64,000 nucleotides of DNA from NCBI GenBank assembly GCA_002433895.1, contig DJJA01000003.1, forward strand, positions 575,745 to 639,744. Reading direction: 5' to 3'. This stretch comes from Candidatus Gottesmanbacteria bacterium UBA6580. Lineage in GTDB: Bacteria; Patescibacteriota; Microgenomatia; UBA10105; UBA927. Shown piece by piece: positions 9,971-48,426 of this stretch (position 1 is its first letter; each line of letters begins with the position of its first letter). The notes under the pieces are model-generated. The model was not told where the DNA came from, did not search any database, and saw only the letters and a program-made list of their open reading frames with translations. The position numbers and the translations under genes were made by a program.

Positions 9971-11398
9971 ATGAAACAATCCAGTGTCCCGTCAAAAAAA
10001 TCCACCAGACGTCACGCGCACCTTGTCGGGATCAAAGGTGTGGCCATGGCAGCGCTCGCGGTGTATCTATCCGAGGCTGGGTATAAAGTGACTGGTAGTG
10101 ATGTCCCGGAGCATTTCCCCACGCAAGATGAGCTGGAGCAAAAAGGTATCCCCGTAGAGGAGGGGTTTGATGCGTCGAGAGTTCAGGGGGTAAATAAACC
10201 GGATGTGCTGTATTACACGGGCGCGCACGGCGGAAGGGACAACGCTGAGGTGGCGGCGGCAAAAAGCGCCGGAGTACCCGTTTACCCGCACGGTCAGGGG
10301 TTAGGTAATATCATGGAAGGCAGCCGGGCGGTTGTCGTTGCGGGAAGTCATGGGAAAACAACCACCAGCGCTATGATAGCCGCGCTGCTGACACATGCGA
10401 AATTCCGCCCGAGTTATGCCATAGGGTGCGGTTCTATAGGCGGTTTGGGCGCGGCGGGGCATAAAGGCGAGAGTGGCTGGTTTATTGCTGAGGGGGATGA
10501 GTATATTACGGATCCTACCCACGACACTACCCCACGGTTCCACTGGTTAACACCCGAGATACTCGTGGTTACCAACATCGACTATGATCACCCGGATGCG
10601 TATGCCGATCTCCAAAAAGTGCAGGACGCGTTTGTGGCACTGCAGCAAAAATCCGGGATCACGATATATAATGCGGATGATAAAAACAGTGCGGTGTTGG
10701 CACGTTCCGGTAAAGTGACCTCATACGGTTTTTCCCCCAACGCCGAATACCGCATCGTGAGAGTTGCCGACGGACGGGAGCGGATGTTTTTTTCTCTTGA
10801 AGAGCGGGGGGTGTTACTCGGAGAATTTACCCTAAAAGTGCCAGGACGGCACAATGTGTTAAACGCGACCGCTGCGATGATCGCGTCGCATATCGCGGGG
10901 GTTGGTTGGGACGTGCTGCGGGAGGGTTTGCTGACATTCACGGGAACAAAGCGCCGGTTTGAGTGTCTTGGATTAGATGGCGGCGTCGTGTGGTACGATG
11001 ATTACGCGCATCATCCGACGGAAATTGCTGCGACATTGAAAGCCGCAAGGACATGGTATCCCGATTCACGGATTATCGCGGTTTTCCAGCCGCACACCTA
11101 CTCACGGACGAAATCATTGCTGAATGAATTTGGCCGGGCGTTTACGGATTGTGACACCGTGTTATTCACCGATATTTATGCTTCAGCACGGGAGCATGAC
11201 ACGCTAGGGATACATGGCAATACCCTGGTTTTTGAAACCGCGAAAAATCATCACGACGCGCATTTTGTAAAAGACAAAAACGCGGTTATAGAAAAGCTGA
11301 AAACACTTATAAAACCGGGAGATGTTGTGATATTTATGGGGGCAGGAGATATTTATAATTGGGAAGGTGAGATAATAGCATCGGTAACGAAAGGTTGA
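9971..11398 (+). CDS. murC: UDP-N-acetylmuramate--L-alanine ligase
   Basis: N-terminal 'HLVGIKGVAMAALAVYL' MurC-type Rossmann region and 'GSHGKTTTSAMIA' P-loop. Confidence 0.8.
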   Translation: MKQSSVPSKKSTRRHAHLVGIKGVAMAALAVYLSEAGYKVTGSDVPEHFPTQDELEQKGIPVEEGFDASRVQGVNKPDVLYYTGAHGGRDNAEVAAAKSAGVPVYPHGQGLGNIMEGSRAVVVAGSHGKTTTSAMIAALLTHAKFRPSYAIGCGSIGGLGAAGHKGESGWFIAEGDEYITDPTHDTTPRFHWLTPEILVVTNIDYDHPDAYADLQKVQDAFVALQQKSGITIYNADDKNSAVLARSGKVTSYGFSPNAEYRIVRVADGRERMFFSLEERGVLLGEFTLKVPGRHNVLNATAAMIASHIAGVGWDVLREGLLTFTGTKRRFECLGLDGGVVWYDDYAHHPTEIAATLKAARTWYPDSRIIAVFQPHTYSRTKSLLNEFGRAFTDCDTVLFTDIYASAREHDTLGIHGNTLVFETAKNHHDAHFVKDKNAVIEKLKTLIKPGDVVIFMGAGDIYNWEGEIIASVTKG

Positions 11399-11402
11399 TT
11401 AT

Positions 11403-12386
11403 ATGGAACAACTGTACAGAGCTAAACTAAAAGAAATACTCGGGGCGAAGCTGAAAGAACAGGAACCACTGGCGCCGTATACGACGTTTAAAATAGGAGG
11501 CCCCGCGGATTTTTTTTATGACGCGAAAACGAAAGATGAATTAGTGCTTGCCATCAAAGCCGCGCGCGAGGCTCAATCACCGTTTTTTATTCTCGGCGGA
11601 GGGACAAATATTCTTATCGGTGACCGTGGGATACGCGGACTGGTTATAAAAAATTCTACCCAGAATATCGCTATCCGTGGAGTGCGTGGTTCCATGGAGC
11701 CGGGCAGTAATAAACGAACTGTATTTGTAGAAGCGGATTCCGGCGTACCGATCAATAAACTCGTCCGGTTCACCATAGAAGAAGGCTTGTCGGGACTTGA
11801 AATGCAGTTAGGGCTTCCGGGAAGTGTCGGAGGCGCGGTATATATGAATTCCAAATGGACAAAGCCGGAAGGATATGTCGGCGATGCGGTGTATCAGGCG
11901 ACGATACTCACTCCCGATAACACCATAAAAGAAGTATCCAAAGAATATTTTGATTTTGCCTATGATTTCAGCACAATCCAAAAAACTGGTGACATTGTAT
12001 TGTCTGTAGTTTTCGCGCTGCTTCAGGATGATAAAGAGCGTTTGTGGGCTATAGCAAACTCAAGTATCGCGTACCGGAGAGGGTCGCAACCACAGGGGGT
12101 TTTTTCAGCGGGATGCACATTTAAAAATATTTCTAAAGTGCAGGCACTCACTGCGGCAACCCCCGGACTCACTACCTCCGCGGGATTTCTCGTTGATAAT
12201 GCCGGCTTGAAAGGGGCAACCGTTGGAGACGCGGAAATTTCTCCGGTACACGCAAATTTTATTGTCAACCGCCGTCATGCCAAGGCGTCTGACGTGGTAG
12301 AATTGATAGAACGGGCACGGACCGCGGTGAAAGACAAGTTCGGCGTCGTTTTGGAAGAAGAAATACGGAAAGTCGGAGAATTTTAA
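11403..12386 (+). CDS. murB: UDP-N-acetylenolpyruvoylglucosamine reductase
   Basis: 'APYTTFKIGGPADFF...FILGGGTNIL' FAD-binding MurB signature. Confidence 0.85.
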   Translation: MEQLYRAKLKEILGAKLKEQEPLAPYTTFKIGGPADFFYDAKTKDELVLAIKAAREAQSPFFILGGGTNILIGDRGIRGLVIKNSTQNIAIRGVRGSMEPGSNKRTVFVEADSGVPINKLVRFTIEEGLSGLEMQLGLPGSVGGAVYMNSKWTKPEGYVGDAVYQATILTPDNTIKEVSKEYFDFAYDFSTIQKTGDIVLSVVFALLQDDKERLWAIANSSIAYRRGSQPQGVFSAGCTFKNISKVQALTAATPGLTTSAGFLVDNAGLKGATVGDAEISPVHANFIVNRRHAKASDVVELIERARTAVKDKFGVVLEEEIRKVGEF

Positions 12387-25020: not shown

Positions 25021-25721
25021 CATCACGACTTCATGCATATACGGTAAAACGCCTGATGAGGATAGTGGTGAGCGTACTGCTTCTCATCGCTCTTACCGGT
25101 TTGCTATCGTGGCTTACTGTGCGGGCGTTTACTATCCAAAATATTGTGGTGGACGCGCCACTCATGTCCATAGAGCTTGATAAAAAGCGGTTCGGAAAAA
25201 ACCTGTTGTTTTTGCCGACAAGCAAACTCCGTGAAGAGTTATTGGAAAATTACCCACTTCTTTCTGACGTGCGGTTTGAAAAAAAATATCCGGGGACGCT
25301 GATTGTGCATCTGATACGGCGGGAAACATTCGCGGTATTAGTGTCGGAGGGGGTGAGTTACGCGATAGATGCACATGGATTGGTATTGGGGGGTACAGAG
25401 AGTAATGAAACCAGATACCCGGTGTTAACGTTCCGTTGCGGGGCGTTGGCTATAGGTAGCACAGTGCCATGTAAAGGGGTGCGGGCGAGTTTGGATTTTT
25501 TGAATAATCTCAATGTGTCGGAATTCCCGGCGCGTATGCAGGAGAAGGATAGCGTATCGATACACGCCATACGCGGTGATACAAACATATTTCTTCCTCA
25601 AACAGGTGACCTGAGTGCCAAAGCAGATACTTTACAAACAATTACGGAGGGGTTTAGAATAAAAGGTACACTGCCCACCGTGATTGATCTCCGTTTTGAA
25701 AAGCCGATCATCACGAACTAA
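25017..25721 (+). CDS. ftsQ: Cell division protein FtsQ/DivIB (POTRA)
   Basis: Single N-terminal TM helix followed by a POTRA-like region. It sits directly upstream of ftsA. Confidence 0.65.
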   Translation: MTSRLHAYTVKRLMRIVVSVLLLIALTGLLSWLTVRAFTIQNIVVDAPLMSIELDKKRFGKNLLFLPTSKLREELLENYPLLSDVRFEKKYPGTLIVHLIRRETFAVLVSEGVSYAIDAHGLVLGGTESNETRYPVLTFRCGALAIGSTVPCKGVRASLDFLNNLNVSEFPARMQEKDSVSIHAIRGDTNIFLPQTGDLSAKADTLQTITEGFRIKGTLPTVIDLRFEKPIITN

Positions 25722-27096: not shown

Positions 27097-28281
27097 TTGT
27101 TATCTATGTTGATAAAACCTGATCTCGCGAGATTTGCCAAAATAAAAGTTGTCGGTATCGGCGGCGGCGGCAGCAATGCGGTCAACTCCATGATCATCAA
27201 CAACCAGATCAATGGCGTTGATTTCATTTCGGTCAACACGGATGCGCAGGCGTTGTTGCTTTCCCAAGCGCAGAGCAAAATCCAAATCGGGGAAAATCTT
27301 ACGCGCGGATTGGGAGCCGGTGGCAGTCCTGATGTCGGGCGCCAGGCAGCCGAAGAATCCAGGGAAAAGATAGCAGAATATCTGCGTGACAGCGATATGG
27401 TGTTTTTAACCTGCGGAGAAGGTGGCGGTACGGGAACAGGCGCGACGCCGGTATTTGCTGAAATTGCCAAAGAATTGGGCGCGCTTACCGTCGCGGTGGT
27501 CACCAAGCCATTTCATTTTGAAGGCACGCGCCGTATGGTATCTGCAGAAGAAGGGATCGCAAATCTTAAGGATAAAGTAGATACCCTTATCGTTATCCCC
27601 AATCAGCGGCTACTTGAAGTGATTGATAAAAAAATGACGCTGGTAGAAGCGTTCCGGGTGACTGACTCGGTGCTTGGACAAGGAGTGCAGGGTATATCCG
27701 ATCTTATTACCATGCCGGGACTAATTAACGTCGACTTTGCTGACGTACGGGCGATTATGACCAATGCTGGCAGCGCCCTGATGGGTATCGGTACCGGGGT
27801 AGGTGAGAACAGAGCCGCAACGGCTGCCCGCACCGCAGTAGCATCGCCGCTTTTGGAAACAACGATCGAAGGAGCGAAGGGTGTGCTGTTTAATATCATC
27901 GGAGGTAACGACCTCACTATGGCAGAGGTAGATGAAGCAGCCAAACTGATTTCGTCCGCGGTTGACCCCGATGCCAACATCATATTTGGCGCAATTATCG
28001 ATGAAAAACTGGTCGATCAGATCAAGATTACGGTGATCGCGACCGGATTTGATGAAACTAAAAAACGCCTCCGCGAAATGACCGGACGTCCAGCAGCATC
28101 AACCGATACCCGTTATGGCTATCCGCGGCAGGCTGCATCATTTACGAAACCAGTACAACCATCACCCATCGAACAACCTGTAGCCCAACAGCCACCGGTT
28201 TCGTTTACTCCACCCGCGGAAGAAAATCCGCCGGAAGAAGATGAGTTTGACATCCCCGCATTCCTACGGCAGCGGAGTTAG
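27097..28281 (+). CDS. ftsZ: Cell division GTPase FtsZ
   Basis: '[15 protein letters not shown]' and '[18 protein letters not shown]' tubulin signature. Confidence 0.9.
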
Positions 28282-28489
28282 TCTCGATTGCTTCAAAAAT
28301 CTGCGTTTCAAGTCTTAACTTTTAATGCGTTGTATATATCTTCAGTTAAGACCGAACACTATGAATTTCTTCAGCAAATACGCATCAAACTGTATTACTT
28401 TTGAAGTAATATACTATTGTCTGGCCAATTAATTTTTCACAACTAGTTTTTGTCCGCAACTAAAGAATACTTACGCGCGTTTTATACTT

Positions 28490-29419
28490 TTATCTACTTT
28501 TTAAAGGTGCAAAGTCGGTTAATATTACGTGCTCGCGAAAAGGCAGTTCTTTATTAAACATTAGAAATGCGATTTCATTAACCCACCCTAACTCTTTCCT
28601 TTCTTTTAAAGTATATACGGCGGATACGTTTGCAATGAGCGCGACAACGCGCCCGTTTTCAGCTGCTTGCTTGGTTTTTGTGCTTTTTTGATAGATGTGC
28701 GCTAAGTCTTTGCCTAATAGGCCTTGAATGTAATTTTCCGCAGTGTCGTGATTTTTAGAGTCTAGCCACCTACTGCCTTGTTCGTACTTCGATGACAGGT
28801 CTAGTGCGACAATACCCCCGAAATACTGTCCTTCAGGTAATTTTAGTAATTGCTTAATAGCATCCTCAGTCCTTTGAATTGAAAGAGATATGAAGTCGCC
28901 AGTTATTCGTTTGCATTCTATTGCGTATTTTCGATTATTTGTTTCTAAGTGAATATCTGGGTTGGTAAAAAAGTATATTGTTTTTAACCCTTTGCTAAAT
29001 AATCTTGCAGTCAATAACAGCTCAAACTGATAGTTTCTAGCGGTACTATTTGCAGAGGTTTCGTGTGACGTGAAGTTGGGACCTGTTAGGATGTGCGCTA
29101 ATTTTCGTTCAATTTCAGCTTTGTGACCATTATTAATGGTTAAATGAAGAAAACAAATGTTTTCGAGTATAAATACGATTTCACGTAATTCCTTTAATGC
29201 AAAGCCACATTTTGCGTGATCAAACTTCTTCAGAAAATTATCGTATGTCCCGTCCTTAATCGCTTTGCTTAGTTGTGTTACTAGATTGATATAAAAATAT
29301 AGTCGCCCTCTTTTAGCTTTATCTAAAAGTGATATTGAATTTAAAAAGGGTTCAATGCTTTTAGTTTTTTCAATTAAAGTGTCGTAGCTGATGGTCATAT
29401 TTTCCGTTTGATTATACAC
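28490..29419 (-). CDS. Hypothetical protein with a candidate PD-(D/E)xK nuclease core; encoded in an AT-rich island
   Basis: 'YQFELLLTARL...IYFFTNPDIHLETNNRKYAIECKRI' gives an E...PD...ExK arrangement. GC is well below neighbours. No other recognisable domain. Confidence 0.4.
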   Translation of the reverse strand: MYNQTENMTISYDTLIEKTKSIEPFLNSISLLDKAKRGRLYFYINLVTQLSKAIKDGTYDNFLKKFDHAKCGFALKELREIVFILENICFLHLTINNGHKAEIERKLAHILTGPNFTSHETSANSTARNYQFELLLTARLFSKGLKTIYFFTNPDIHLETNNRKYAIECKRITGDFISLSIQRTEDAIKQLLKLPEGQYFGGIVALDLSSKYEQGSRWLDSKNHDTAENYIQGLLGKDLAHIYQKSTKTKQAAENGRVVALIANVSAVYTLKERKELGWVNEIAFLMFNKELPFREHVILTDFAPLKSR

Positions 29420-29545
29420 TTTAGATTAGTCATAAACATGTCGCACAACCGAGCATTTATGACGTTTTTGGAGTTAAAAGTAGATTGTGAGTATTAGTTT
29501 AGGCCTATAATTTAGTATTTATGTTGTTATAGTGATATAATCGGC

Positions 29546-29860
29546 ATGGTTATGACAAGGCAAGGAATACATATTAAAGAGCACGTCTCGCACGCCGACA
29601 TTTTACAAGCGGCTGGTTTAGAGCCAGAAAATACACGTCCAGTCCGCACAGCTGTCGTGCATATTCATCTTAGGAGACCATCTGCCCGTATGAAGCAAAT
29701 AATGGAGTCACTAGACAGCATGGTGGGAGGGCATAAAATAAGACACAAAGGTACAACTTGGAAAGTAGCCTCAACTGAGAGTATTGCGCCTACCGAACAT
29801 AAAGGTCATACAAAAAATAGGGGTGCTGCATTTGAGTATTTTCTTGAAGAAGAAGTTTGA
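29546..29860 (+). CDS. Hypothetical small basic protein
   Basis: 104 aa ORF. Extended -10 TGATATAAT (29533-29541) lies immediately upstream of the ATG, so the mRNA is probably leaderless. Confidence 0.35.
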   Translation: MVMTRQGIHIKEHVSHADILQAAGLEPENTRPVRTAVVHIHLRRPSARMKQIMESLDSMVGGHKIRHKGTTWKVASTESIAPTEHKGHTKNRGAAFEYFLEEEV

Positions 29861-30139
29861 CCTAGGATACTGGCGCACCCCGTTCTTCATTGATTTTGAT
29901 TGTCTCCACTGGTGTATTCAACCTGAAGACTTAAAAACGCATTGATATTTTTGAAGCAATTGGGGAGGGGTTGAGGCAAAAAGATAATCCTGTCCTATAA
30001 ATCCCCGCATTTCTATGGCAGAGGAGTTAAACGAGCACAAACGCCATCTTTGATTTGCTTCGGGTTTGATAACGGGGGTTAGAGCAGCCAAGTCCCAGTT
30101 TTTTGTTATTTGAAATTTGTATGGTAAAATACCGAAATC

Positions 30140-30481
30140 ATGAAAATTAAGACAGTATCTGCTAAAGGCGAACGCTTGGTTGAGGATGGTCAGGGGGCGC
30201 TCCGTAGGTTTAAGAGAAAGACAGGACAACACCTAAGCGTGTTTGGTGCAGGTCCAGGGATTATGGGCTATGCTGAAACTTCACTTAACCCGACTGCTCA
30301 TGGAGATGGAGCTCATGTCAGCGACAGGGATGACGTGGTGTTCATTGAAAATTTATACGAAAGACCAGTCAGAACGAAGCCAGGAAAAACCTTCAGCCTA
30401 TTTGGAACGGGTGAAATACAAGTAGAAGATACTCAGCCAAAGCCTCGCCAACGAGTACTTAGACTTAAGATATCAGCATAA
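30140..30481 (+). CDS. Hypothetical small protein, paralog family member B
   Basis: 113 aa. Its N-terminus 'MKIKTVSAKGERLVEDGQGALRRF' shares the pattern x-KG-x(6-9)-(G/Q)G(T)A-x-RF with ORFs 30610 and 31144. Confidence 0.4.
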   Translation: MKIKTVSAKGERLVEDGQGALRRFKRKTGQHLSVFGAGPGIMGYAETSLNPTAHGDGAHVSDRDDVVFIENLYERPVRTKPGKTFSLFGTGEIQVEDTQPKPRQRVLRLKISA

Positions 30482-30609
30482 TCCAATATCACTATTGTGA
30501 TTTCGGTTGTCGCTTGTTATATTCTTCCTGAAGACTTAATAGATGCATGGTTTGGGAGATTGAACTGTCCTATAAATCCCCGTCGTCTTAAGGCAGCGGA
30601 GTTAACGAT

Positions 30610-30945
30610 GTGACCACAATCCACAAGGATGTATACAAAGGGAGCAAGACTCTCTCTATAGATATTTCCGTTGAACAAGGCACCGCAACAATCCGTTTTG
30701 GCACGCGCGAACCACGATGGTTATATTGGAGACAAGCAGGTGAAACTACCGCGGTTTTTAAGGAAGCTGATGTGTTGCTTACCGAGACGTCTCGCCGGTT
30801 AAGAAAATCTATTATTCTCCGTTTTGATACCGCAAATACTCACTTAAAACAATGGATTTTGGCACACGAAGATGAGCTTGGGTTTGATGAAGTGGTACCT
30901 CGCACGAGCCGTGCATACCGGGTGACAGTCCAGAAGATATATTGA
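30610..30945 (+). CDS. Hypothetical small protein, paralog family member C (GTG start)
   Basis: 111 aa with 'YKGSKTLSIDISVEQGTATIRF'. GGAG lies 13 nt upstream. Its upstream ~100 bp duplicates the module found before ORF 30140. Confidence 0.4.
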   Translation: MTTIHKDVYKGSKTLSIDISVEQGTATIRFGTREPRWLYWRQAGETTAVFKEADVLLTETSRRLRKSIILRFDTANTHLKQWILAHEDELGFDEVVPRTSRAYRVTVQKIY

Positions 30946-30995
30946 TGTATCTTGCTGCGTCATTATTTGGGGAAGTTTGCCAACTGTTTGTCTGA

Positions 30996-31181
30996 ATGTC
31001 TCGCCGGTTAAGAAAATCTATTATCCATTGGTTTGTCTCTCACCGCGTTTTTCGCATATCGTATGTTGAGGCCATTATTGTGAAAGAATGGATGATAAGA
31101 GTTGATTTCCAAATTAATACCGCATCTGTTATGATGTTGAGCTATGACAACGGTCATCAGGTTAAAGGGGAGAAATGGTGA
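30996..31181 (+). pseudogene. Duplicated fragment of the 30610 gene
   Basis: An exact 27 bp repeat GTCTCGCCGGTTAAGAAAATCTATTAT occurs at 30788-30814 and 30998-31024. The encoded 'SRRLRKSII' matches the internal 'TSRRLRKSIILRF' of ORF 30610. Confidence 0.4.
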
Positions 31182-31497
31182 GACAGAAAAAGTGATTGGT
31201 ACCGCATTCAATTTCCGTGTTATCGGAAAAAATGGACGGACCACGCCGTCACTTCGGGCGACAATGCTTGGCAATATCGAAGCAGATCCGGAGCATTTCG
31301 CTGTGGCGGAAGTGACATTTGGAGCTCATATTGAAGGGTTCTTGCCGAAGAAGCGGGGCACTGCAGGGAACAGCCGTATTTCAGGCTGGATTGACGATGC
31401 GTCACAGCATATCACCTTGCGTGTGAAAGATTCTAGACGCCCGATTGTGTACCGTGGAAGGAGATACCAGGAAGCAACGCTATTTGAACGGGACTGA
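31144..31497 (+). CDS. Hypothetical small protein, paralog family member D
   Basis: 117 aa. 'MTTVIRLKGRNGETEKVIGTAFNFRV' follows the same N-terminal pattern as B and C. Confidence 0.4.
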   Translation: MTTVIRLKGRNGETEKVIGTAFNFRVIGKNGRTTPSLRATMLGNIEADPEHFAVAEVTFGAHIEGFLPKKRGTAGNSRISGWIDDASQHITLRVKDSRRPIVYRGRRYQEATLFERD

Positions 31498-31546
31498 CGA
31501 TCAAAACATCATGCTACGGGAATAGTGTAGTATACGTTTTGTACGT

Positions 31547-32206
31547 ATGCATATCGACATCCTGAAACGTCTCCCCCGAAGAACCATATCACTTCATATT
31601 AATCATGACGGAGCGCTTGAAGTACGCGCCCCAAAGTATGTCCCTGAATTTATTATTCAACGCTTTGTCGCCTCCAAAGCGGGTTGGATAGAAAAAACGA
31701 GGCGAAAACTGGCATCATTGCCCAAAACTACAAAATCCACCTATACAGAAGGATCGGTGTTCCGGCTAGGGGGAAAAGAATATACGCTTCATGTCACTGA
31801 CGGTAACGCCATTGTGTTGACTCCGACAAAGTTATTTTTCCCAAGGAAGTTTATGTCACGGGCACGCTATCACATGGAGGTTTTTTGCAGAAAATTTGCA
31901 AAGCTTTTTTTGACTGAGCGGCTCAATCATTACGCGGAAAAAATGAGCGTTTCATATAAGCGGGTTTCTATCAGGGATACCTCCAGCCGTTGGGGATCCT
32001 GCTCAAGTTCCGGCACGATCAGTTTTTCATACCGGTTGGTGCTCGCTGAGCTGTACATTATTGATTATGTGGTTATCCACGAACTTGCCCATGTAACATT
32101 TCATCATCACCGGCCGTCATTTTGGGCACATGTCGCTTCGTATTACCCTGATTATGTAACTGCCCGGACATGGTTACGGCGGGAAGGGCACACCCTCAAA
32201 ATATAG
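31547..32206 (+). CDS. YgjP/DUF45-family (M48/WLM-like) zinc metallohydrolase
   Basis: C-terminal 'YVVIHELAHVTFHHH' HExxH-type motif and ~220 aa size are typical of DUF45. Confidence 0.65.
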   Translation: MHIDILKRLPRRTISLHINHDGALEVRAPKYVPEFIIQRFVASKAGWIEKTRRKLASLPKTTKSTYTEGSVFRLGGKEYTLHVTDGNAIVLTPTKLFFPRKFMSRARYHMEVFCRKFAKLFLTERLNHYAEKMSVSYKRVSIRDTSSRWGSCSSSGTISFSYRLVLAELYIIDYVVIHELAHVTFHHHRPSFWAHVASYYPDYVTARTWLRREGHTLKI

Positions 32207-32265
32207 CCTGCCCCTTGTCGGTATGGTGGTATCTCCATATACTCAATAAAGATTGGAGCATATTT

Positions 32266-32448
32266 ATGAACAAAAAATCAGTAGGAGTGTTCACACTGGT
32301 TATCCTCGGGATGTATTTTATTTTTTTCCATTCATCGCCATTCCCGTTTAGCCATGACGCGATCGGTTTGCCGCCATTTCATACCGTACACACTATTTTT
32401 GGTGTTGTTCTGCTCGTTGGAGCCGTATTTGTCTGGAAAAAGAAATAA
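32266..32448 (+). CDS. Small two-TM membrane protein
   Basis: 60 aa with two hydrophobic helices. GGAG SD lies 10 nt upstream of ATG 32266. Confidence 0.35.
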   Translation: MNKKSVGVFTLVILGMYFIFFHSSPFPFSHDAIGLPPFHTVHTIFGVVLLVGAVFVWKKK

Positions 32449-32472
32449 GCTTTGTTCCGCTTGTGGCAACCG

Positions 32473-32799
32473 CTATTTTAACCAGTAGGGGAGGCGGACG
32501 CCGTAGGTTTTTAGTTTTTGGGTGACTTCATCATCTTCCGGAGCCGGATGATACATGCTTGCTCTGCCGTATCGGCGTTGGGAAGCGCTTCTCACACGGG
32601 CAAGGGTTTCGATCTGCAGCTCAATATCCCGTATCACCGCAGGGTCCGAAGCGCGTACGGTAAGGGTGGTTTCTTTGTCCTGATACCTGATGCTGATGTC
32701 TTCGGAAAGATGCCAAATTTTCAGCCACCCGAGTAAGCCGCGGCTTTCTTTCACTGACCCTTTTTTGATTTGCCATTGCCCAATTCTTCTATATGTCAT
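32473..32799 (-). CDS. Hypothetical protein
   Basis: 108 aa ORF with no overlapping alternative ORF and no recognisable motif. Confidence 0.35.
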   Translation of the reverse strand: MTYRRIGQWQIKKGSVKESRGLLGWLKIWHLSEDISIRYQDKETTLTVRASDPAVIRDIELQIETLARVRSASQRRYGRASMYHPAPEDDEVTQKLKTYGVRLPYWLK

Positions 32800-32864
32800 G
32801 AGGTGAGGAGTATAGAGGGGGGGAAAACGGCGAAAGTCAATGTGTGTCCGCGGTCAAGGTGATG

Positions 32865-34100
32865 TTAGGAGATTTTCTTTTGATCCCAGAAGTATGAAAA
32901 AGTGAACAGAGTGATAATATAGCCCAGGTGTGACTGCAGGAAGTACCGGGAAAAATACCACGCCATAAGGGTGCCGAACGCCATAAAAAACAACACATTT
33001 TTTTCTTCTTTACTGCCGCGTTTCGTGTGTAGCCAATACAGCAGGAAAGAGACCGTGTAGGCGATAATTTGAATGATCCAAAAAGGGAATGTGCTGTAGA
33101 GTGATTTCACTACTCCCAGTTTTGGGAGCACGGGGCTAAAGCCGATGCCTTCTATGGGATGGATAAATTGTTGTGCCCGCGGGTCGGTCGTCACATACAG
33201 CACCAGACTTTTTATCAGTGCTTCCGCGTGCCACACGAAGAACGGAAGATAGATGGCACCTGCCGTGAGTATAGTAGACAGGAGAAACTGCCGGAATGCT
33301 TTGGCTGGTTGTTGTTTCCATAACCAGTAGGCAAAAAAAGGCGCCGCGACCCATGCGGTTTGCTTGGTGCCCATGGCGAGACCGAGGAGTATGCCCGATA
33401 TGATAAATGACTTTTTTTCTGCTGCAAACAGTGCCCATAGGAGGAGGGCGAGCACCATCACATCATTGGTGCCCTCAGGGATAAACGTTGTAAGGAGCGG
33501 GTTGAGTGCTCCGAATATGAGAAACAGCAGCGTTTTTTCCGAGATGCCGAATTTCCAAAACGCGAGGACAAATAGCGACGCGTAAGCCAAAAGATACACG
33601 ACTCTGATGTCAGACCAGGCAAAGAGTTGTGCAAATACCCGGTACTGCGCCGCCGAAACCAGTAAAAGGAACGGGGGGTGGATATTATTAAAAAGCGCGG
33701 GATTTGTTTTGTTTCCCATCTCATCTATGTATGGCCATTTCGCTAAATCGGATTTGTCGTATGGCGTGCTGTAGGGGTTGAGGCCGAGGAGTAGATATCT
33801 TCCTGCAATTTCTGCCTGCATCGCTGAGTCATTGACGAAATTTTGAGGTAATGTCCGGTGCCGTTCTTGCATATTTGAGATAGTCGGGATGACTGTTGCC
33901 AAGACCGCAAACGCGATGGTCAGCAATAGGCGGAGGTGCAGCGATCGTGCCGGGCGCAGCATGCTTACCATGAGGTAGCAGATGGAGACAAGCGTAAGCC
34001 CCGCGAGGAATATTTCGGTGTGAAGGATGCCTAGCCCCCATCGGTTGATAACAAGGAATACGGCTGAGGAAAAAAGTATCCCTAACACATCCAGACTCAT
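32865..34100 (-). CDS. Polytopic membrane protein, GT-C-like glycosyltransferase (DUF2029/PMT-like)
   Basis: About 11 predicted TM helices, an aromatic-rich periplasmic loop, and general similarity to mannosyltransferase-like GT-C proteins. Confidence 0.5.
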   Translation of the reverse strand: MSLDVLGILFSSAVFLVINRWGLGILHTEIFLAGLTLVSICYLMVSMLRPARSLHLRLLLTIAFAVLATVIPTISNMQERHRTLPQNFVNDSAMQAEIAGRYLLLGLNPYSTPYDKSDLAKWPYIDEMGNKTNPALFNNIHPPFLLLVSAAQYRVFAQLFAWSDIRVVYLLAYASLFVLAFWKFGISEKTLLFLIFGALNPLLTTFIPEGTNDVMVLALLLWALFAAEKKSFIISGILLGLAMGTKQTAWVAAPFFAYWLWKQQPAKAFRQFLLSTILTAGAIYLPFFVWHAEALIKSLVLYVTTDPRAQQFIHPIEGIGFSPVLPKLGVVKSLYSTFPFWIIQIIAYTVSFLLYWLHTKRGSKEEKNVLFFMAFGTLMAWYFSRYFLQSHLGYIITLFTFSYFWDQKKIS

Positions 34101-34235
34101 ACGTCGATCGTAGCATATCGTCTGTTACTTCACCATGGCGCCGGGAAGTGTATGCAGGGGGCAATCTCATTGATTTTCGCGTGGCAAAGACCTATAATAC
34201 AATTCCGCGTTTCAAGTAGAGAGCGTTACGTTCGT

Positions 34236-36248
34236 ATGAAAAACGAATCACGTGTATCTTATAGTGATCATCAGAAGCAGATTGCCCCCCGCGGCGTGGA
34301 GAGTAATAGCCTCCGAGAAACGTTAAAAACCCCTGAGTGTTTTGCGTCAAAACCCCGCATTTTAGCGTTCATGGGAGCCTCCGGTTCAGGGAAAGATTTA
34401 GCCATTGAAATTCTTACGTCGCTGCCTGGCCGCCGCAGTGTTGCACAAAAATTGGAGCTATCGGAGCCAGTGTCGATACGAGTTGTGCCTAAATTAACCG
34501 ACCGTCCGCCCCGGAAGTCCGAGGTATCCAAAATCCCGATCAGTCCGGAAGAATTTACACAATTTAAAGAGCGGGGCCAGCTGATCGGGGAATATGAACT
34601 CAGAAGCAACGGATGCCGGTATGCGTATAGGATAGATGACCTTGTACAAACATGTAAGGAACAATTCCTTGTCGCCGAACCAAGCATTCTCCACATTCTC
34701 GAGTTAAAGCAAAAATTTGGCGATCAGATACACTGCACGTTTTTAACATCTTCCCGTGAATACCGTGAGCAATTATTGCGGCGGCGCGGAAGTGAGTCGG
34801 AAGAGGAAATCAAAAAACGCTTAGACGAAGGCGATGGGCAAACATTTGTAGCGCTGCTGCTTGCGGGAAAGCCGGTCGATTTCATTGAGCAGTTTGTCGC
34901 TCCCGATATATCCCAAAATTTTCAGACACTGATAAATAGTGATCCGCAAACATGGGAAACCGAGGGTAAACTTACGGCATTGCGGGAAAAAGTAGGAGCT
35001 GAATTAGTCGATATTTTGGAGGGTGCTATAGCCAACAAAGGAAAAGTAGTCGATGAGCTTATCAACATTGACCGTTTCAAGACCTTTATTGATGACATTG
35101 TGATACTGGATGACAAATTTGTCACAGAAAATCCTTACCAAGCGGGGCTTTTTTCTGAGTCTATTATCGATACCGCGACCCGTATGCTGCTTAATTCTGA
35201 AAACAAAGTATATAGCGCCGATCAGACTGCGAAAGCCAATGTGATATGTAACCTTCTAGTACCCGAAGCAGCTAAATCGGTAGAAACGGTTTTGGGGGTG
35301 CGGTACAAAGATATTTTTGACGTGATTATGGCAAACCAGGAAGACCGGAAATTGTATATCATGGGAACCAAAGAAGAGCCAATTGAAGCGCGTTGGGTTT
35401 CGTATTACGAAGACCGGAACAGAGTGTTTGGTCTCATCCTCCGTAATCCGGAAAAACCGGGCTCGTTCGTCAGTTTCCGCGCGATAAAGCCGGATGAAAG
35501 TGATGAGGCACTCATTACATTCCATATCGATTTGTCGAGTATCGAGCGTCCGACAGACAGGCGCGTGGCTCAAATGGCGTTTATGTTACAGGCACTCAAA
35601 ATATGTGAAGCCATCGGTATAGAAAATTTTCACTACGCAGAGCATTTTGACATGGTCGATGAAAATGATAATGTCATCGGTATAATTCCGCGGGCGGTCG
35701 CCCATGAAGAAGGCATGCACATACACCGGGCGTCATCCGTGATGGTATGGCGATGGAAAACAGACGAGGCAACAAAAAACAAAGTGAAACAGTTGCTTAT
35801 GGTGCGGCGCAGTAAACACAAAAAAGTAAATCCCGGCGTCTGGCAGGCGGCACCCAGCGGTCATTTGCTCCCCGGAGAAACATACGCAGAGGCAGCCAGG
35901 CGCGAGCTTCGTGAAGAAATGGGAGCTGATTTCGCAAAGGGTGTATCGGTTATTCATCCGCTAATGCCTATCCGTGTGTATTCAGATATGTCCAACACCT
36001 TGCAGCCACAAAAAGAAAATTTTTATGTCTTTATGGCGCAGGTCGACGAAAAAGCATCACACGCGCTCAGCCCGAATTATGAAGCAGAACAAGCGGTATG
36101 GATGGATATAGATACCATACGGAAAATGATGCTTGAAAATCCGCAACAGTTTCGTGACGCGTTCCGTGTTTCTTTTGACGCGATCAACTGGGATGCGGTT
36201 ACCGCTGACAGCGTGCAACTTGCCGCTGGTCAACAGTACGCGAAATAA
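34236..36248 (+). CDS. Multidomain protein: N-terminal guanylate-kinase-like P-loop domain, central unknown region, C-terminal Nudix hydrolase
   Basis: 'FMGASGSGKD' P-loop plus 'VPKLTDRPPRKSEV...ISPEEF...YAY' resembles GMP kinase. The Nudix box is 'GHLLPGETYAEAARRELREEMGA'. The TTGATT-N17-TATAAT promoter (34170-34198) lies inside the longer track ORF, so ATG 34236 was chosen. Confidence 0.65.
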   Translation: MKNESRVSYSDHQKQIAPRGVESNSLRETLKTPECFASKPRILAFMGASGSGKDLAIEILTSLPGRRSVAQKLELSEPVSIRVVPKLTDRPPRKSEVSKIPISPEEFTQFKERGQLIGEYELRSNGCRYAYRIDDLVQTCKEQFLVAEPSILHILELKQKFGDQIHCTFLTSSREYREQLLRRRGSESEEEIKKRLDEGDGQTFVALLLAGKPVDFIEQFVAPDISQNFQTLINSDPQTWETEGKLTALREKVGAELVDILEGAIANKGKVVDELINIDRFKTFIDDIVILDDKFVTENPYQAGLFSESIIDTATRMLLNSENKVYSADQTAKANVICNLLVPEAAKSVETVLGVRYKDIFDVIMANQEDRKLYIMGTKEEPIEARWVSYYEDRNRVFGLILRNPEKPGSFVSFRAIKPDESDEALITFHIDLSSIERPTDRRVAQMAFMLQALKICEAIGIENFHYAEHFDMVDENDNVIGIIPRAVAHEEGMHIHRASSVMVWRWKTDEATKNKVKQLLMVRRSKHKKVNPGVWQAAPSGHLLPGETYAEAARRELREEMGADFAKGVSVIHPLMPIRVYSDMSNTLQPQKENFYVFMAQVDEKASHALSPNYEAEQAVWMDIDTIRKMMLENPQQFRDAFRVSFDAINWDAVTADSVQLAAGQQYAK

Positions 36249-36260
36249 TACAACAGAGGA

Positions 36261-36620
36261 GTGGTGCACTTTTTACCGTGGTATACTATTTGTATGTTGA
36301 TGCAGCTTCTTGTCAACGCACTCGCTTTTTATATTACTGCCTATATCATGCCCGGAATTGAAATAAGCGGTTGGGTGGCGCTTTTTGTAATTTCGGTGGT
36401 GTGGGGGATACTTACCGTTGTCATAAAGCCAATATTGCTATTACTCACGTTACCTATCAACGTCCTGACGTTAGGGTTGTTTACAATCGTCATCAATGCT
36501 ATTTTGCTGCTCATCACAAGTAGTATTGTGCCAGGGTTTACGATTGATGGATTTGGTACCGCGGTACTTGCCGTTATTGTGTTGTCTATTGTGAGCTCGT
36601 TTTTGAATTCCCTCAGGTAA
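36261..36620 (+). CDS. DUF360 / phage-holin-4_2-family small membrane protein
   Basis: Four TM helices and the 'LTLGLFTIVINAILLLITSSIVPGFTIDGF' motif are characteristic of this family. Confidence 0.6.
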   Translation: MVHFLPWYTICMLMQLLVNALAFYITAYIMPGIEISGWVALFVISVVWGILTVVIKPILLLLTLPINVLTLGLFTIVINAILLLITSSIVPGFTIDGFGTAVLAVIVLSIVSSFLNSLR

Positions 36621-48349: not shown

Positions 48350-48426
48350 GGACCCGTAGCTCAGCTGGCTAGAGCGTTTCATTGACATTGAAAAGGTCAG
48401 AGGTTCAAGTCCTCTCGGGTCCACCA
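48350..48426 (+). tRNA. tRNA-Val (anticodon GAC)
   Basis: Cloverleaf: acceptor GGACCCG/CGGGTCC, D-arm GCTCAGCTGGCTAGAGC, anticodon stem TTTCA/TGAAA with loop TTGACAT, T-arm GAGGTTCAAGTCCTC, encoded CCA. Confidence 0.85.

Follow-up and report, generated by a model that had tools for sequence, protein, structure and literature searches.

The 64,000-nt stretch analysed here (the window; contig DJJA01000003.1 of Candidatus Gottesmanbacteria bacterium UBA6580, positions 575,745 to 639,744) carries the division gene ftsZ. The region directly behind it, from 28282 to about 32859, is probably a hypervariable integration hotspot, in which an integrase-less tandem array of small cassettes has accreted at an attachment (att) site formed by the 3' end of ftsZ. 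As judged from sequence comparison, the insertions were most likely made by an integrase family that targets the ftsZ tail in Candidatus Gottesmanbacteria, within the Candidate Phyla Radiation (CPR). The initial annotation had described this region as an AT-rich island with traits typical of defence or toxin islands; the foreign composition and the nuclease core that it pointed out were borne out, but the ftsZ-tail repeats and the link to an integrase had been overlooked.

The target gene is a 394-aa open reading frame (ORF) at 27097-28281 on the plus strand, taken from the ORF list and from FtsZ relatives in genome contigs, and it stays intact at full length. By these relatives, too, the window falls within Candidatus Gottesmanbacteria. 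Its final 30 nt (ATCCCCGCATTCCTACGGCAGCGGAGTTAG, 28252-28281, plus strand), found by a core-pattern match, encode the working tail IPAFLRQRS* and make up core copy 1, on the attL side of the array. The same 30 nt recur as direct repeats on the plus strand at 30001-30030 (core copy 2, encoding IPAFLWQRS*, a displaced ftsZ tail) and at 30576-30605 (core copy 3, encoding IPVVLRQRS* and partly decayed). The core pattern had three matches in the window, against zero expected. Just before each downstream copy lie an in-frame TAA and a longer conserved arm of about 50-110 nt, which starts near CCTGAAGACTTAA and ends in CTGTCCTATAA, and the copies keep the reading frame IPAFLRQ[RK][SN]*. These repeats divide the island into 28282-30030, with a 309-aa gene and ORF A (cassette 1), 30031-30605, with ORF B (cassette 2), and everything from 30606 onward, with ORF C and the rest.

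An initial survey that took in 80 ftsZ loci and their flanks found copies of the locus's own ftsZ tail only downstream of the gene, only as direct repeats, and only in the window and in loci L004 and L010. Further arrays were located at L087, L092, L104, L108, L127, L198 and L241 by a metagenome pattern scan and by context look-ups. The 17-nt pattern used on metagenomes gave 118 matches, most of them due to chance, and nine passed the extension filter; the true loci L127 and L198 came in later through protein matches. The duplication of the ftsZ tail is present at 14 loci beyond the window. Downstream of ftsZ, two Gottesmanbacteria loci (L003 and L005) lack any tail copy, and their sites therefore appear to be unoccupied.

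Across 34 cores, positions 1-8 (ATCCCCGC, 28252-28259 in the window) were near-invariant, so this block is the likely crossover segment. We compared 20 downstream copies with the resident ftsZ tails and counted single-step differences, of which 81 were synonymous and 40 nonsynonymous. The fraction of synonymous sites is only 0.24 (24%), so that the synonymous excess is highly significant (binomial p = 3e-23), and 11 of the 20 copies encode the exact resident peptide despite 3-7 nucleotide changes. Because the differences are mainly synonymous, the copies evidently evolved while they were translated as the FtsZ C-terminus, that is, while each served as the working end of ftsZ. This pattern of divergence is what would be expected if each integration installs the element's own copy and displaces the old tail.

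The tail may also serve the genes that follow it. The GGAG within it can be used as a ribosome-binding site by the first gene after a core: in core copy 3 it lies 8 nt upstream of the GTG with which ORF C starts, and the gene behind ftsZ in L004 and L241 begins 4 nt past the stop. In L004 that gene (11159-11701) resembles peptide deformylase (def), an identity judged from its sequence only; its start is 4 nt past the real ftsZ stop, and arm-plus-core units lie beyond it. A similar def-like gene sits right behind an ftsZ-tail core in L178, from about position 1931, and such cases may represent a housekeeping-type gene within a cassette.

We then aligned 15 arm-plus-core units from eleven loci, the window included, across about 140 nt. 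The order within a unit is a promoter-like TTGACT, a spacing of about 17-18 nt, TGTTACATT, GAAGACTTAAAAATGYATTGA, a variable stretch, GATTGAAGCTAA, CCTGTCCTATAA and the core. The units thus open with a promoter-like -35 and an extended -10 element, and the arm in front of the core (the P arm) may act as a promoter. The invariance of CCTGTCCTATAA is partly by construction, because this block belonged to the search pattern that retrieved nine of the units; the units of the window, L001 and L004 were found independently of it. In the window, the P arm of cassette 1 (29886-30000, plus strand) is of a long form with a weak promoter-like stretch and the motifs GAAGACTTAAAAACGCA ... TTGAAGCAAT ... 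CCTGTCCTATAA, and is about 70% conserved in L004. That of cassette 2 (30495-30575, plus strand) is of a short form with the promoter-like hexamers TTGTGA-17-TATATT and shows 84% homology to L241 6919-7456. Within the window, positions 25590-25707, in the 3' part of a 234-aa gene upstream of ftsA, also showed gapped local similarity to the long P-arm unit (for example CAATTACGGAGGGGTTTAGAATAAAAGGTA against CAATTGGGGAGGGGTTGAGGCAAAAAGATA), scoring 66, where shuffles reached 52 at most and the ftsZ end 52.5; this may be chance or an old scar.

Promoter-like openings of this kind, and a core GGAG that can act as the ribosome-binding site of the next gene, would also fit repeats that are not recombination sites, being instead a regulatory RNA, a terminator or attenuator that resembles the ftsZ end, or local duplications of the ftsZ 3' end. 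However, RNAalifold on the 15 units gave a consensus of -0.15 kcal/mol with 0 covarying pairs, upon which the structured-RNA reading of the units was dropped, and the only Rfam match at gathering threshold, in the region and in the whole window, was a tRNA at 48350-48423 (plus strand) unrelated to the island. Since they have neither a consensus fold nor an Rfam match, the units read as protein-binding att arms. The translated history of the tail copies, the strain homology breakpoints lying exactly at cores and the integrase genes abutting cores (both below) all speak against an RNA or a local duplication, which we find barely credible.

Inverted symmetry was found only between the P arm and the P' arm on the other side of the core. 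The P' arm of cassette 1 (28282-28352, plus strand) holds inverted copies of the P-arm motifs ATTGCTTCAAAAAT and GCGTTTCAAGTCTT (inverted repeats I9 and I25), and as this arm mirrors the P arm, the two ends of cassette 1 form imperfect inverted repeats of about 38 nt. At the integrase loci of relatives, the sequence after the core contains TTAGCTTCAA and TGCATTTTTAAGTCTTC, the reverse complements of P-arm motifs. The window retains this P' arm at 28282-28320, and its homology to the spacer between ftsZ and the integrase gene of the closest genome (L002/L222) extends through 28316. The retained part includes the left half of a 9-bp inverted repeat (GTCTTAACT/AGTTAAGAC, 28312-28320 and 28344-28352) which had been noted earlier as marking the boundary of the island. 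The repeat is real and lies inside the conserved recombination-site arm, but by itself it does not exceed chance expectation, as the window, with 17 comparable inverted repeats against about 10 and at most 17 in shuffles, is not enriched in them. When the ends of cassette 1 were joined as in an excised circle, the reconstituted attP gave a single-stranded DNA hairpin of -28.7 kcal/mol (z = -3.65). A natural P-core-P' junction between two cassettes is present in L001.

The integrase itself was found in relatives. In the closest genome, L002/L222, with an FtsZ 97% identical to that of the window, a 340-aa protein of the Phage_integrase family (PF00589, 3.2e-32; PHROG integrase, 2.4e-45) starts 130 nt past the ftsZ stop. 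It has 334 relatives at E <= 1e-20, and the best 120 of these are all at least 61% identical to it and about 338 aa long. An integrase gene lies beside an att site in L002/L222, L227, L228, L230, L232 and L127. In 5/5 members examined in long contigs (63-100% identical) it is 130-185 nt downstream of ftsZ on the same strand; the sixth member, in L127 (72% identical), is 70 nt past an internal arm-plus-core unit, the third in its array. Another direct copy of the ftsZ tail, 5.0-9.4 kb away, marks the far end of each integrase locus. The islands of these relatives carry HepT/MNT, Fic, Zeta toxin, HicA, NYN, KAP NTPase, TerB_N and Phage_CRI Rep genes, which is typical island cargo.

Three side observations concern these relatives. 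The autonomous elements of L222 (9872-15185), L227 and L232 have a Phage_CRI (PF05144) rolling-circle Rep gene beside the integrase, a hint that CPR bacteria harbour small integrative replicons resembling plasmids or inoviruses; the Pfam families listed for these elements included none for morphogenesis or conjugation. A small gene for a coiled-coil protein (MITDADVTKLKKTFATKDDLK...), which has a TTGACT/TACATT promoter of its own, lies directly behind ftsZ-tail cores, in three copies in L087 (1134-1448, 3343-3717 and 7544-7813) and just past a core copy in L191, and its sole match was a weak one to a PHROG of unknown function. The integrase-bearing Gottesmanbacteria genome and the window-type genome, whose array is integrase-less, co-occur in one metagenome sample of bioreactor sludge (ERZ936873 / SRR1506987; L225 and L236).

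Taken together with the att-site architecture, the integrase loci suggest the following mechanism. Dedicated tyrosine integrases would take the last ~30 nt of ftsZ as their chromosomal attachment site, and the attP of an incoming element, consisting of a P arm, ATCCCCGC, element-borne FLRQRS* codons and a P' arm, would recombine with the ftsZ 3' end. With a crossover in ATCCCCGC, the tail brought by the element would become the working end of ftsZ and the old tail would be displaced past the P arm to the far junction of the element. Serial integration together with internal deletions could then give tandem integrase-less units that each close with a P arm followed by an ftsZ-tail copy. In the window, the 309-aa gene with ORF A would be one such cassette and ORF B the next. 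Because the window is without an integrase and its relatives have one, we filed the array as a non-autonomous derivative, whose cassettes would move only with integrase supplied in trans.

To follow the cassettes between strains and species, we compared the window with L001, L241 and L198. The L001 contig is about 96% identical to the window and keeps the 309-aa/ORF A unit with both flanking cores, but places it between a 326-aa gene and a 2.7-kb block (a hexapeptide transferase, Methyltransf_21 and others). ORF C is on the opposite side of this unit, and the 7.5-kb contig lacks ORFs B and D; the homology breakpoints between L001 and the window fall exactly at cores. L241 has an ftsZ with 81% nucleotide identity; there ORF B, 91% identical as a protein, shares its cassette with a histidine phosphatase gene and keeps its own arm and core, the cassette with its arm being 84% identical in nucleotides and its neighbours being different. 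The YgjP gene of L241 comes after a P arm and core. ORF A accompanies the 309-aa gene in the window and in L001, but in L198 a homolog 67% identical to it lies beside a gene of the p108 family (below) in place of the nuclease.

These comparisons bear on the claim of the initial annotation that the nuclease-like 309-aa protein and four small ORFs (A-D) form one undescribed defence or toxin module. In favour of a single module are the foreign composition, the conserved motif and fold of the nuclease, the selection that marks the genes as real, and the toxin-antitoxin and defence-type genes in similar islands elsewhere. However, att-type repeats separate the genes, the nuclease homologs have unrelated neighbours, and PADLOC gave no matches beyond noise. 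Above all, cassette order and partners differ between strains and species, with the genes assorting independently in L001, L241 and L198. We conclude that they are not one co-functional defence module; the claim is largely refuted by the assortment, and we hold it to be very unlikely.

Several observations weigh against an array built and moved by an integrase acting at ftsZ. No integrase homolog was found in the 64-kb window, core copy 3 shows partial decay, and neither a circle junction nor any other recombination product was seen. Contigs from several samples, 22 in all, share the window's arrangement unaltered and show nothing that points to excision. The segment of ORF C, ORF D and YgjP is not closed by a P arm or core; a fourth, decayed unit proposed before ORF D (31052-31144) was not significant and was rejected, its score being no better than that of 66 of 300 shuffles. 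The L001 contig is a single short-read assembly, in which a chimeric join at the repeats may conceivably have arisen, and the def-like genes behind the cores of L004 and L178 blur the line between cassette and flank.

Some of these points would suit a fossil array, in which past integrase-bearing elements lost their integrase and most of their genes, and strains came to differ by homologous recombination between the repeats of about 100 nt or by deletion. The missing integrase homolog, the identical arrangement on 22 contigs, the decay of core 3 and a scar left by a fragment of ORF C (below) all agree with such a history, as does the P' arm of cassette 1, which matches the integrase-proximal arm of L222-type elements as that of a deletion derivative would. 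Against it, the cassette genes are under purifying selection, the ORF B cassette and its arm are 84% identical between species whose ftsZ genes are 81% identical and whose neighbours are different, and the P arms are conserved across species as much as coding sequence. A fossil array is a genuine possibility, to which we give somewhat less than even chances.

A more far-reaching proposal goes beyond the accretion of cassettes at ftsZ that we favour. The locus could be a new type of platform for capturing genes, similar to an integron, with its primary site in the ftsZ 3' end, where an ftsZ-adjacent integrase would shuffle cassettes of one or two genes in trans between positions and genomes. 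Captured genes would be expressed from the dcw/ftsZ transcript and from the promoter in each P arm, and the latter promoter would act on the integrase gene only once the arms are joined in an excised circle. We offer this tentatively and think it rather doubtful.

Accretion by an integrase at the 3' end of a gene is a known kind of process, and the locus is a mobile-element island of that kind; its novelty lies in a target made up of codons for the conserved C-terminal peptide of FtsZ, in a host from the CPR, in the very small size of the cassettes and in the integrase family. One such case is that of ICESt1 and ICESt3 and their integrase-less derivatives, the cis-mobilizable elements (CIMEs), which accrete site-specifically at the 3' end of fda in Streptococcus thermophilus. 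As there, the present system has a tyrosine integrase, an att site in the 3' end of a conserved gene whose end the element restores, direct repeats flanking the units, and tandem arrays that include integrase-less units. Unlike those elements, the units here target ftsZ C-terminal-peptide codons in a CPR host and are only 0.5-1.7 kb long with one or two genes, and their autonomous relatives encode a Phage_CRI rolling-circle Rep, the Pfam families listed for these relatives including none for conjugation. With integrons the locus shares arrays of small cassettes that each end in a recombination-site repeat, an order that varies between strains, and a first cassette that can be expressed from an upstream resident transcript. 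However, there is no IntI beside the site and no recombinase adjoining ftsZ in the window, and the units do not fold as attC-type hairpins, so the array is not an integron; moreover, its cassettes have genes on both strands, sometimes two, and the primary site is inside an essential gene.

Two further systems are comparable as far as their published accounts describe them. Tycheposons of Prochlorococcus integrate and excise at seven tRNA genes (bioRxiv 10.1101/2020.12.28.424599) and, on that description, likewise build hypervariable islands in a streamlined genome from small cargo-carrying elements at fixed sites; the site here is a protein-gene end under codon-level constraint and not a tRNA gene, a comparison that concerns the sites and not the integrases. 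The genomic islands of dusA-specific integrases insert at the 5' end of dusA (PMC4482086), and in that account one integrase family keeps to a single conserved protein-coding gene in many genomes, whereas here the site is the ftsZ 3' end, the hosts are CPR bacteria and the units are tandem mini-cassettes. A search of the library of papers at hand found none describing ftsZ as an integration or att site. Mobile elements and the sources of flexible genes are poorly described in CPR/Patescibacteria, and the locus provides a concrete, testable system, with an integrase family (the 334 relatives) tied to one site of defined att architecture and small-cassette arrays that explain a hypervariable locus beside the division operon. 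Because an element must carry a translatable replacement of the FtsZ tail, the result is an unusual signature at the codon level, by which such elements can be traced elsewhere.

Cassette 1 carries as cargo the 309-aa gene (28490-29419, minus strand; ratio of nonsynonymous to synonymous divergence, pN/pS, 0.074). Its E..PD..ExK arrangement, reported in the initial annotation, is present and its motif residues are conserved among homologs. A word-indexed search found 7 relatives, and a full hidden Markov model scan found 1713 clusters (at 50% identity) with E <= 1e-3, nearly all of about 300 aa. E120, R128, E133, D155 and K170 are invariant in 45 diverse homologs; E133, D155 and K170 are also invariant in 8 close homologs, as is E168, which is still the consensus residue in the 45. 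A profile of the 45 sequences added no homologs in the word-indexed search, and the alignment was too diverse for a locus scan. The listed GTG start gives 309 aa and gene callers elsewhere give 302 or 318 aa; since homologs begin or align from M17 (MTISYDTL), this is probably the true start, for a protein of about 293 aa.

We modelled the protein with AlphaFold2 (AF2), at a predicted local distance difference test (pLDDT) of 88 and a predicted template modelling score (pTM) of 0.88. The model has an N-terminal helical bundle (12-112), a helix at 122-142 (with E133), strands at 147-150, 156-160 (after D155) and 163-171 (with E168 and K170), a helix at 176-192 and a strand at 201-207. The nuclease core thus forms as had been anticipated, and in the model it is with confidence the canonical alpha-beta-beta-beta-alpha-beta of PD-(D/E)xK proteins, a restriction-endonuclease-like fold. 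Foldseek matches were weak (best E 0.04 in PDB and 0.007 in BFVD), in lists dominated by restriction endonucleases, which were the best neighbours, Mrr, HamA and resolvases. As in Mrr, type II restriction endonucleases and HamA, the core has E, D and ExK in the canonical elements; unlike them, the protein has a distinct N-terminal helical bundle and the additional invariant residues E120 and R128.

The protein and its family had zero matches in Pfam, NCBIfam, PHROG and PDB sequence profiles. That nothing here matches a named defence system held up against PADLOC, in which the only match was NDT_II-A (E = 0.0032) to the N-terminal helices, with scattered single matches for the 45 family members. 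Conservation of the gene neighbourhood, which had been put forward as a check, was not found, as the homologs have no conserved neighbour gene, and relatives were absent from the phage and plasmid collections and viral contigs searched. The window cassette contains no adjacent DNA methyltransferase as in type II restriction-modification, and the Methyltransf_21 gene of L001 belongs to a different cassette. The protein is most likely a Mg-dependent DNA endonuclease, and reads as cargo, a nuclease acting on its own. Among possible roles, a restriction-like or addiction one, exerted alone, is the most plausible, but is a guess. The large unannotated nuclease-fold family (about 1700 clusters at 50% identity) is flagged for biochemistry.

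The composition of the island changes as had first been described, with a sharp drop in guanine-plus-cytosine (GC) content after ftsZ. The GC content falls from about 0.51 inside ftsZ to 0.35 over 28282-29545, and is 0.425 over 28282-32859 against 0.478 for the whole window, which supports a compositionally foreign region. All four small ORFs exist, but only ORF A diverges from the 309-aa gene, ORFs B-D being beyond repeat boundaries. ORF A (29546-29860, plus strand) is 104 aa long, or probably 102 aa from 29552, with a pN/pS of 0.054 from 16 synonymous and 3 nonsynonymous differences; its single-sequence AF2 model had a pLDDT of 45 and was unusable. ORF B, the cargo of cassette 2 (30140-30481, plus strand, 113 aa), has a pN/pS of 0.117, and ORF C, behind the last core copy (30610-30945, plus strand, 111 aa), one of 0.047. 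By these ratios, ORFs A, B and C and the 309-aa gene are real genes under purifying selection. ORF D (31144-31497, plus strand, 117 aa) occurs as the exact protein on 10 contigs, and the homolog search returned only near-identical copies and no diverged homolog. ORFs A-D had zero matches in Pfam, PADLOC and PHROGs.

Beyond the last core copy, ORF C may be ancestral flank and not cargo, because its homolog in L222 (65% identical) adjoins p108-like and GT87 genes, and everything from ORF C on could be former flank that later received insertions. Just past ORF C, 38 nt of its sequence (30789-30826) are repeated at 87% identity at 30998-31035 (plus strand, direct repeat D3), and this indicates the scar of a rearrangement or insertion that brought in the segment from ORF D to YgjP. 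The gene after the small ORFs is of the YgjP type, as initially proposed (31547-32206, plus strand; PF01863, 3.5e-56). It is followed within 31547-32799 by a 92-aa ORF and then by a 108-aa gene (p108; 32473-32799, minus strand). All three are still in the variable locus, because synteny with L222 resumes only at 32860, from where the window (32860-36616) aligns to L222 16415-20171 at 78%. The first conserved chromosomal flank is a glycosyltransferase gene (Pfam GT87; 32865-34100, minus strand).

The p108 gene belongs to a family of about 108 aa (MxYRxxxxWxI...LTVRxS...GVxLPxWLK) that had zero Pfam or PHROG matches and recurs at the locus in five genomes. Besides the window (32473-32799, minus strand), members are found in L001 (3816-4142), L198 (1208-1534), L222 (16031-16372) and L003 (11347-11652). 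L001 has two paralogs, and the member in L198 is paired with the ORF A homolog. Its recurrence at this site could reflect a role as an element-maintenance or directionality factor.

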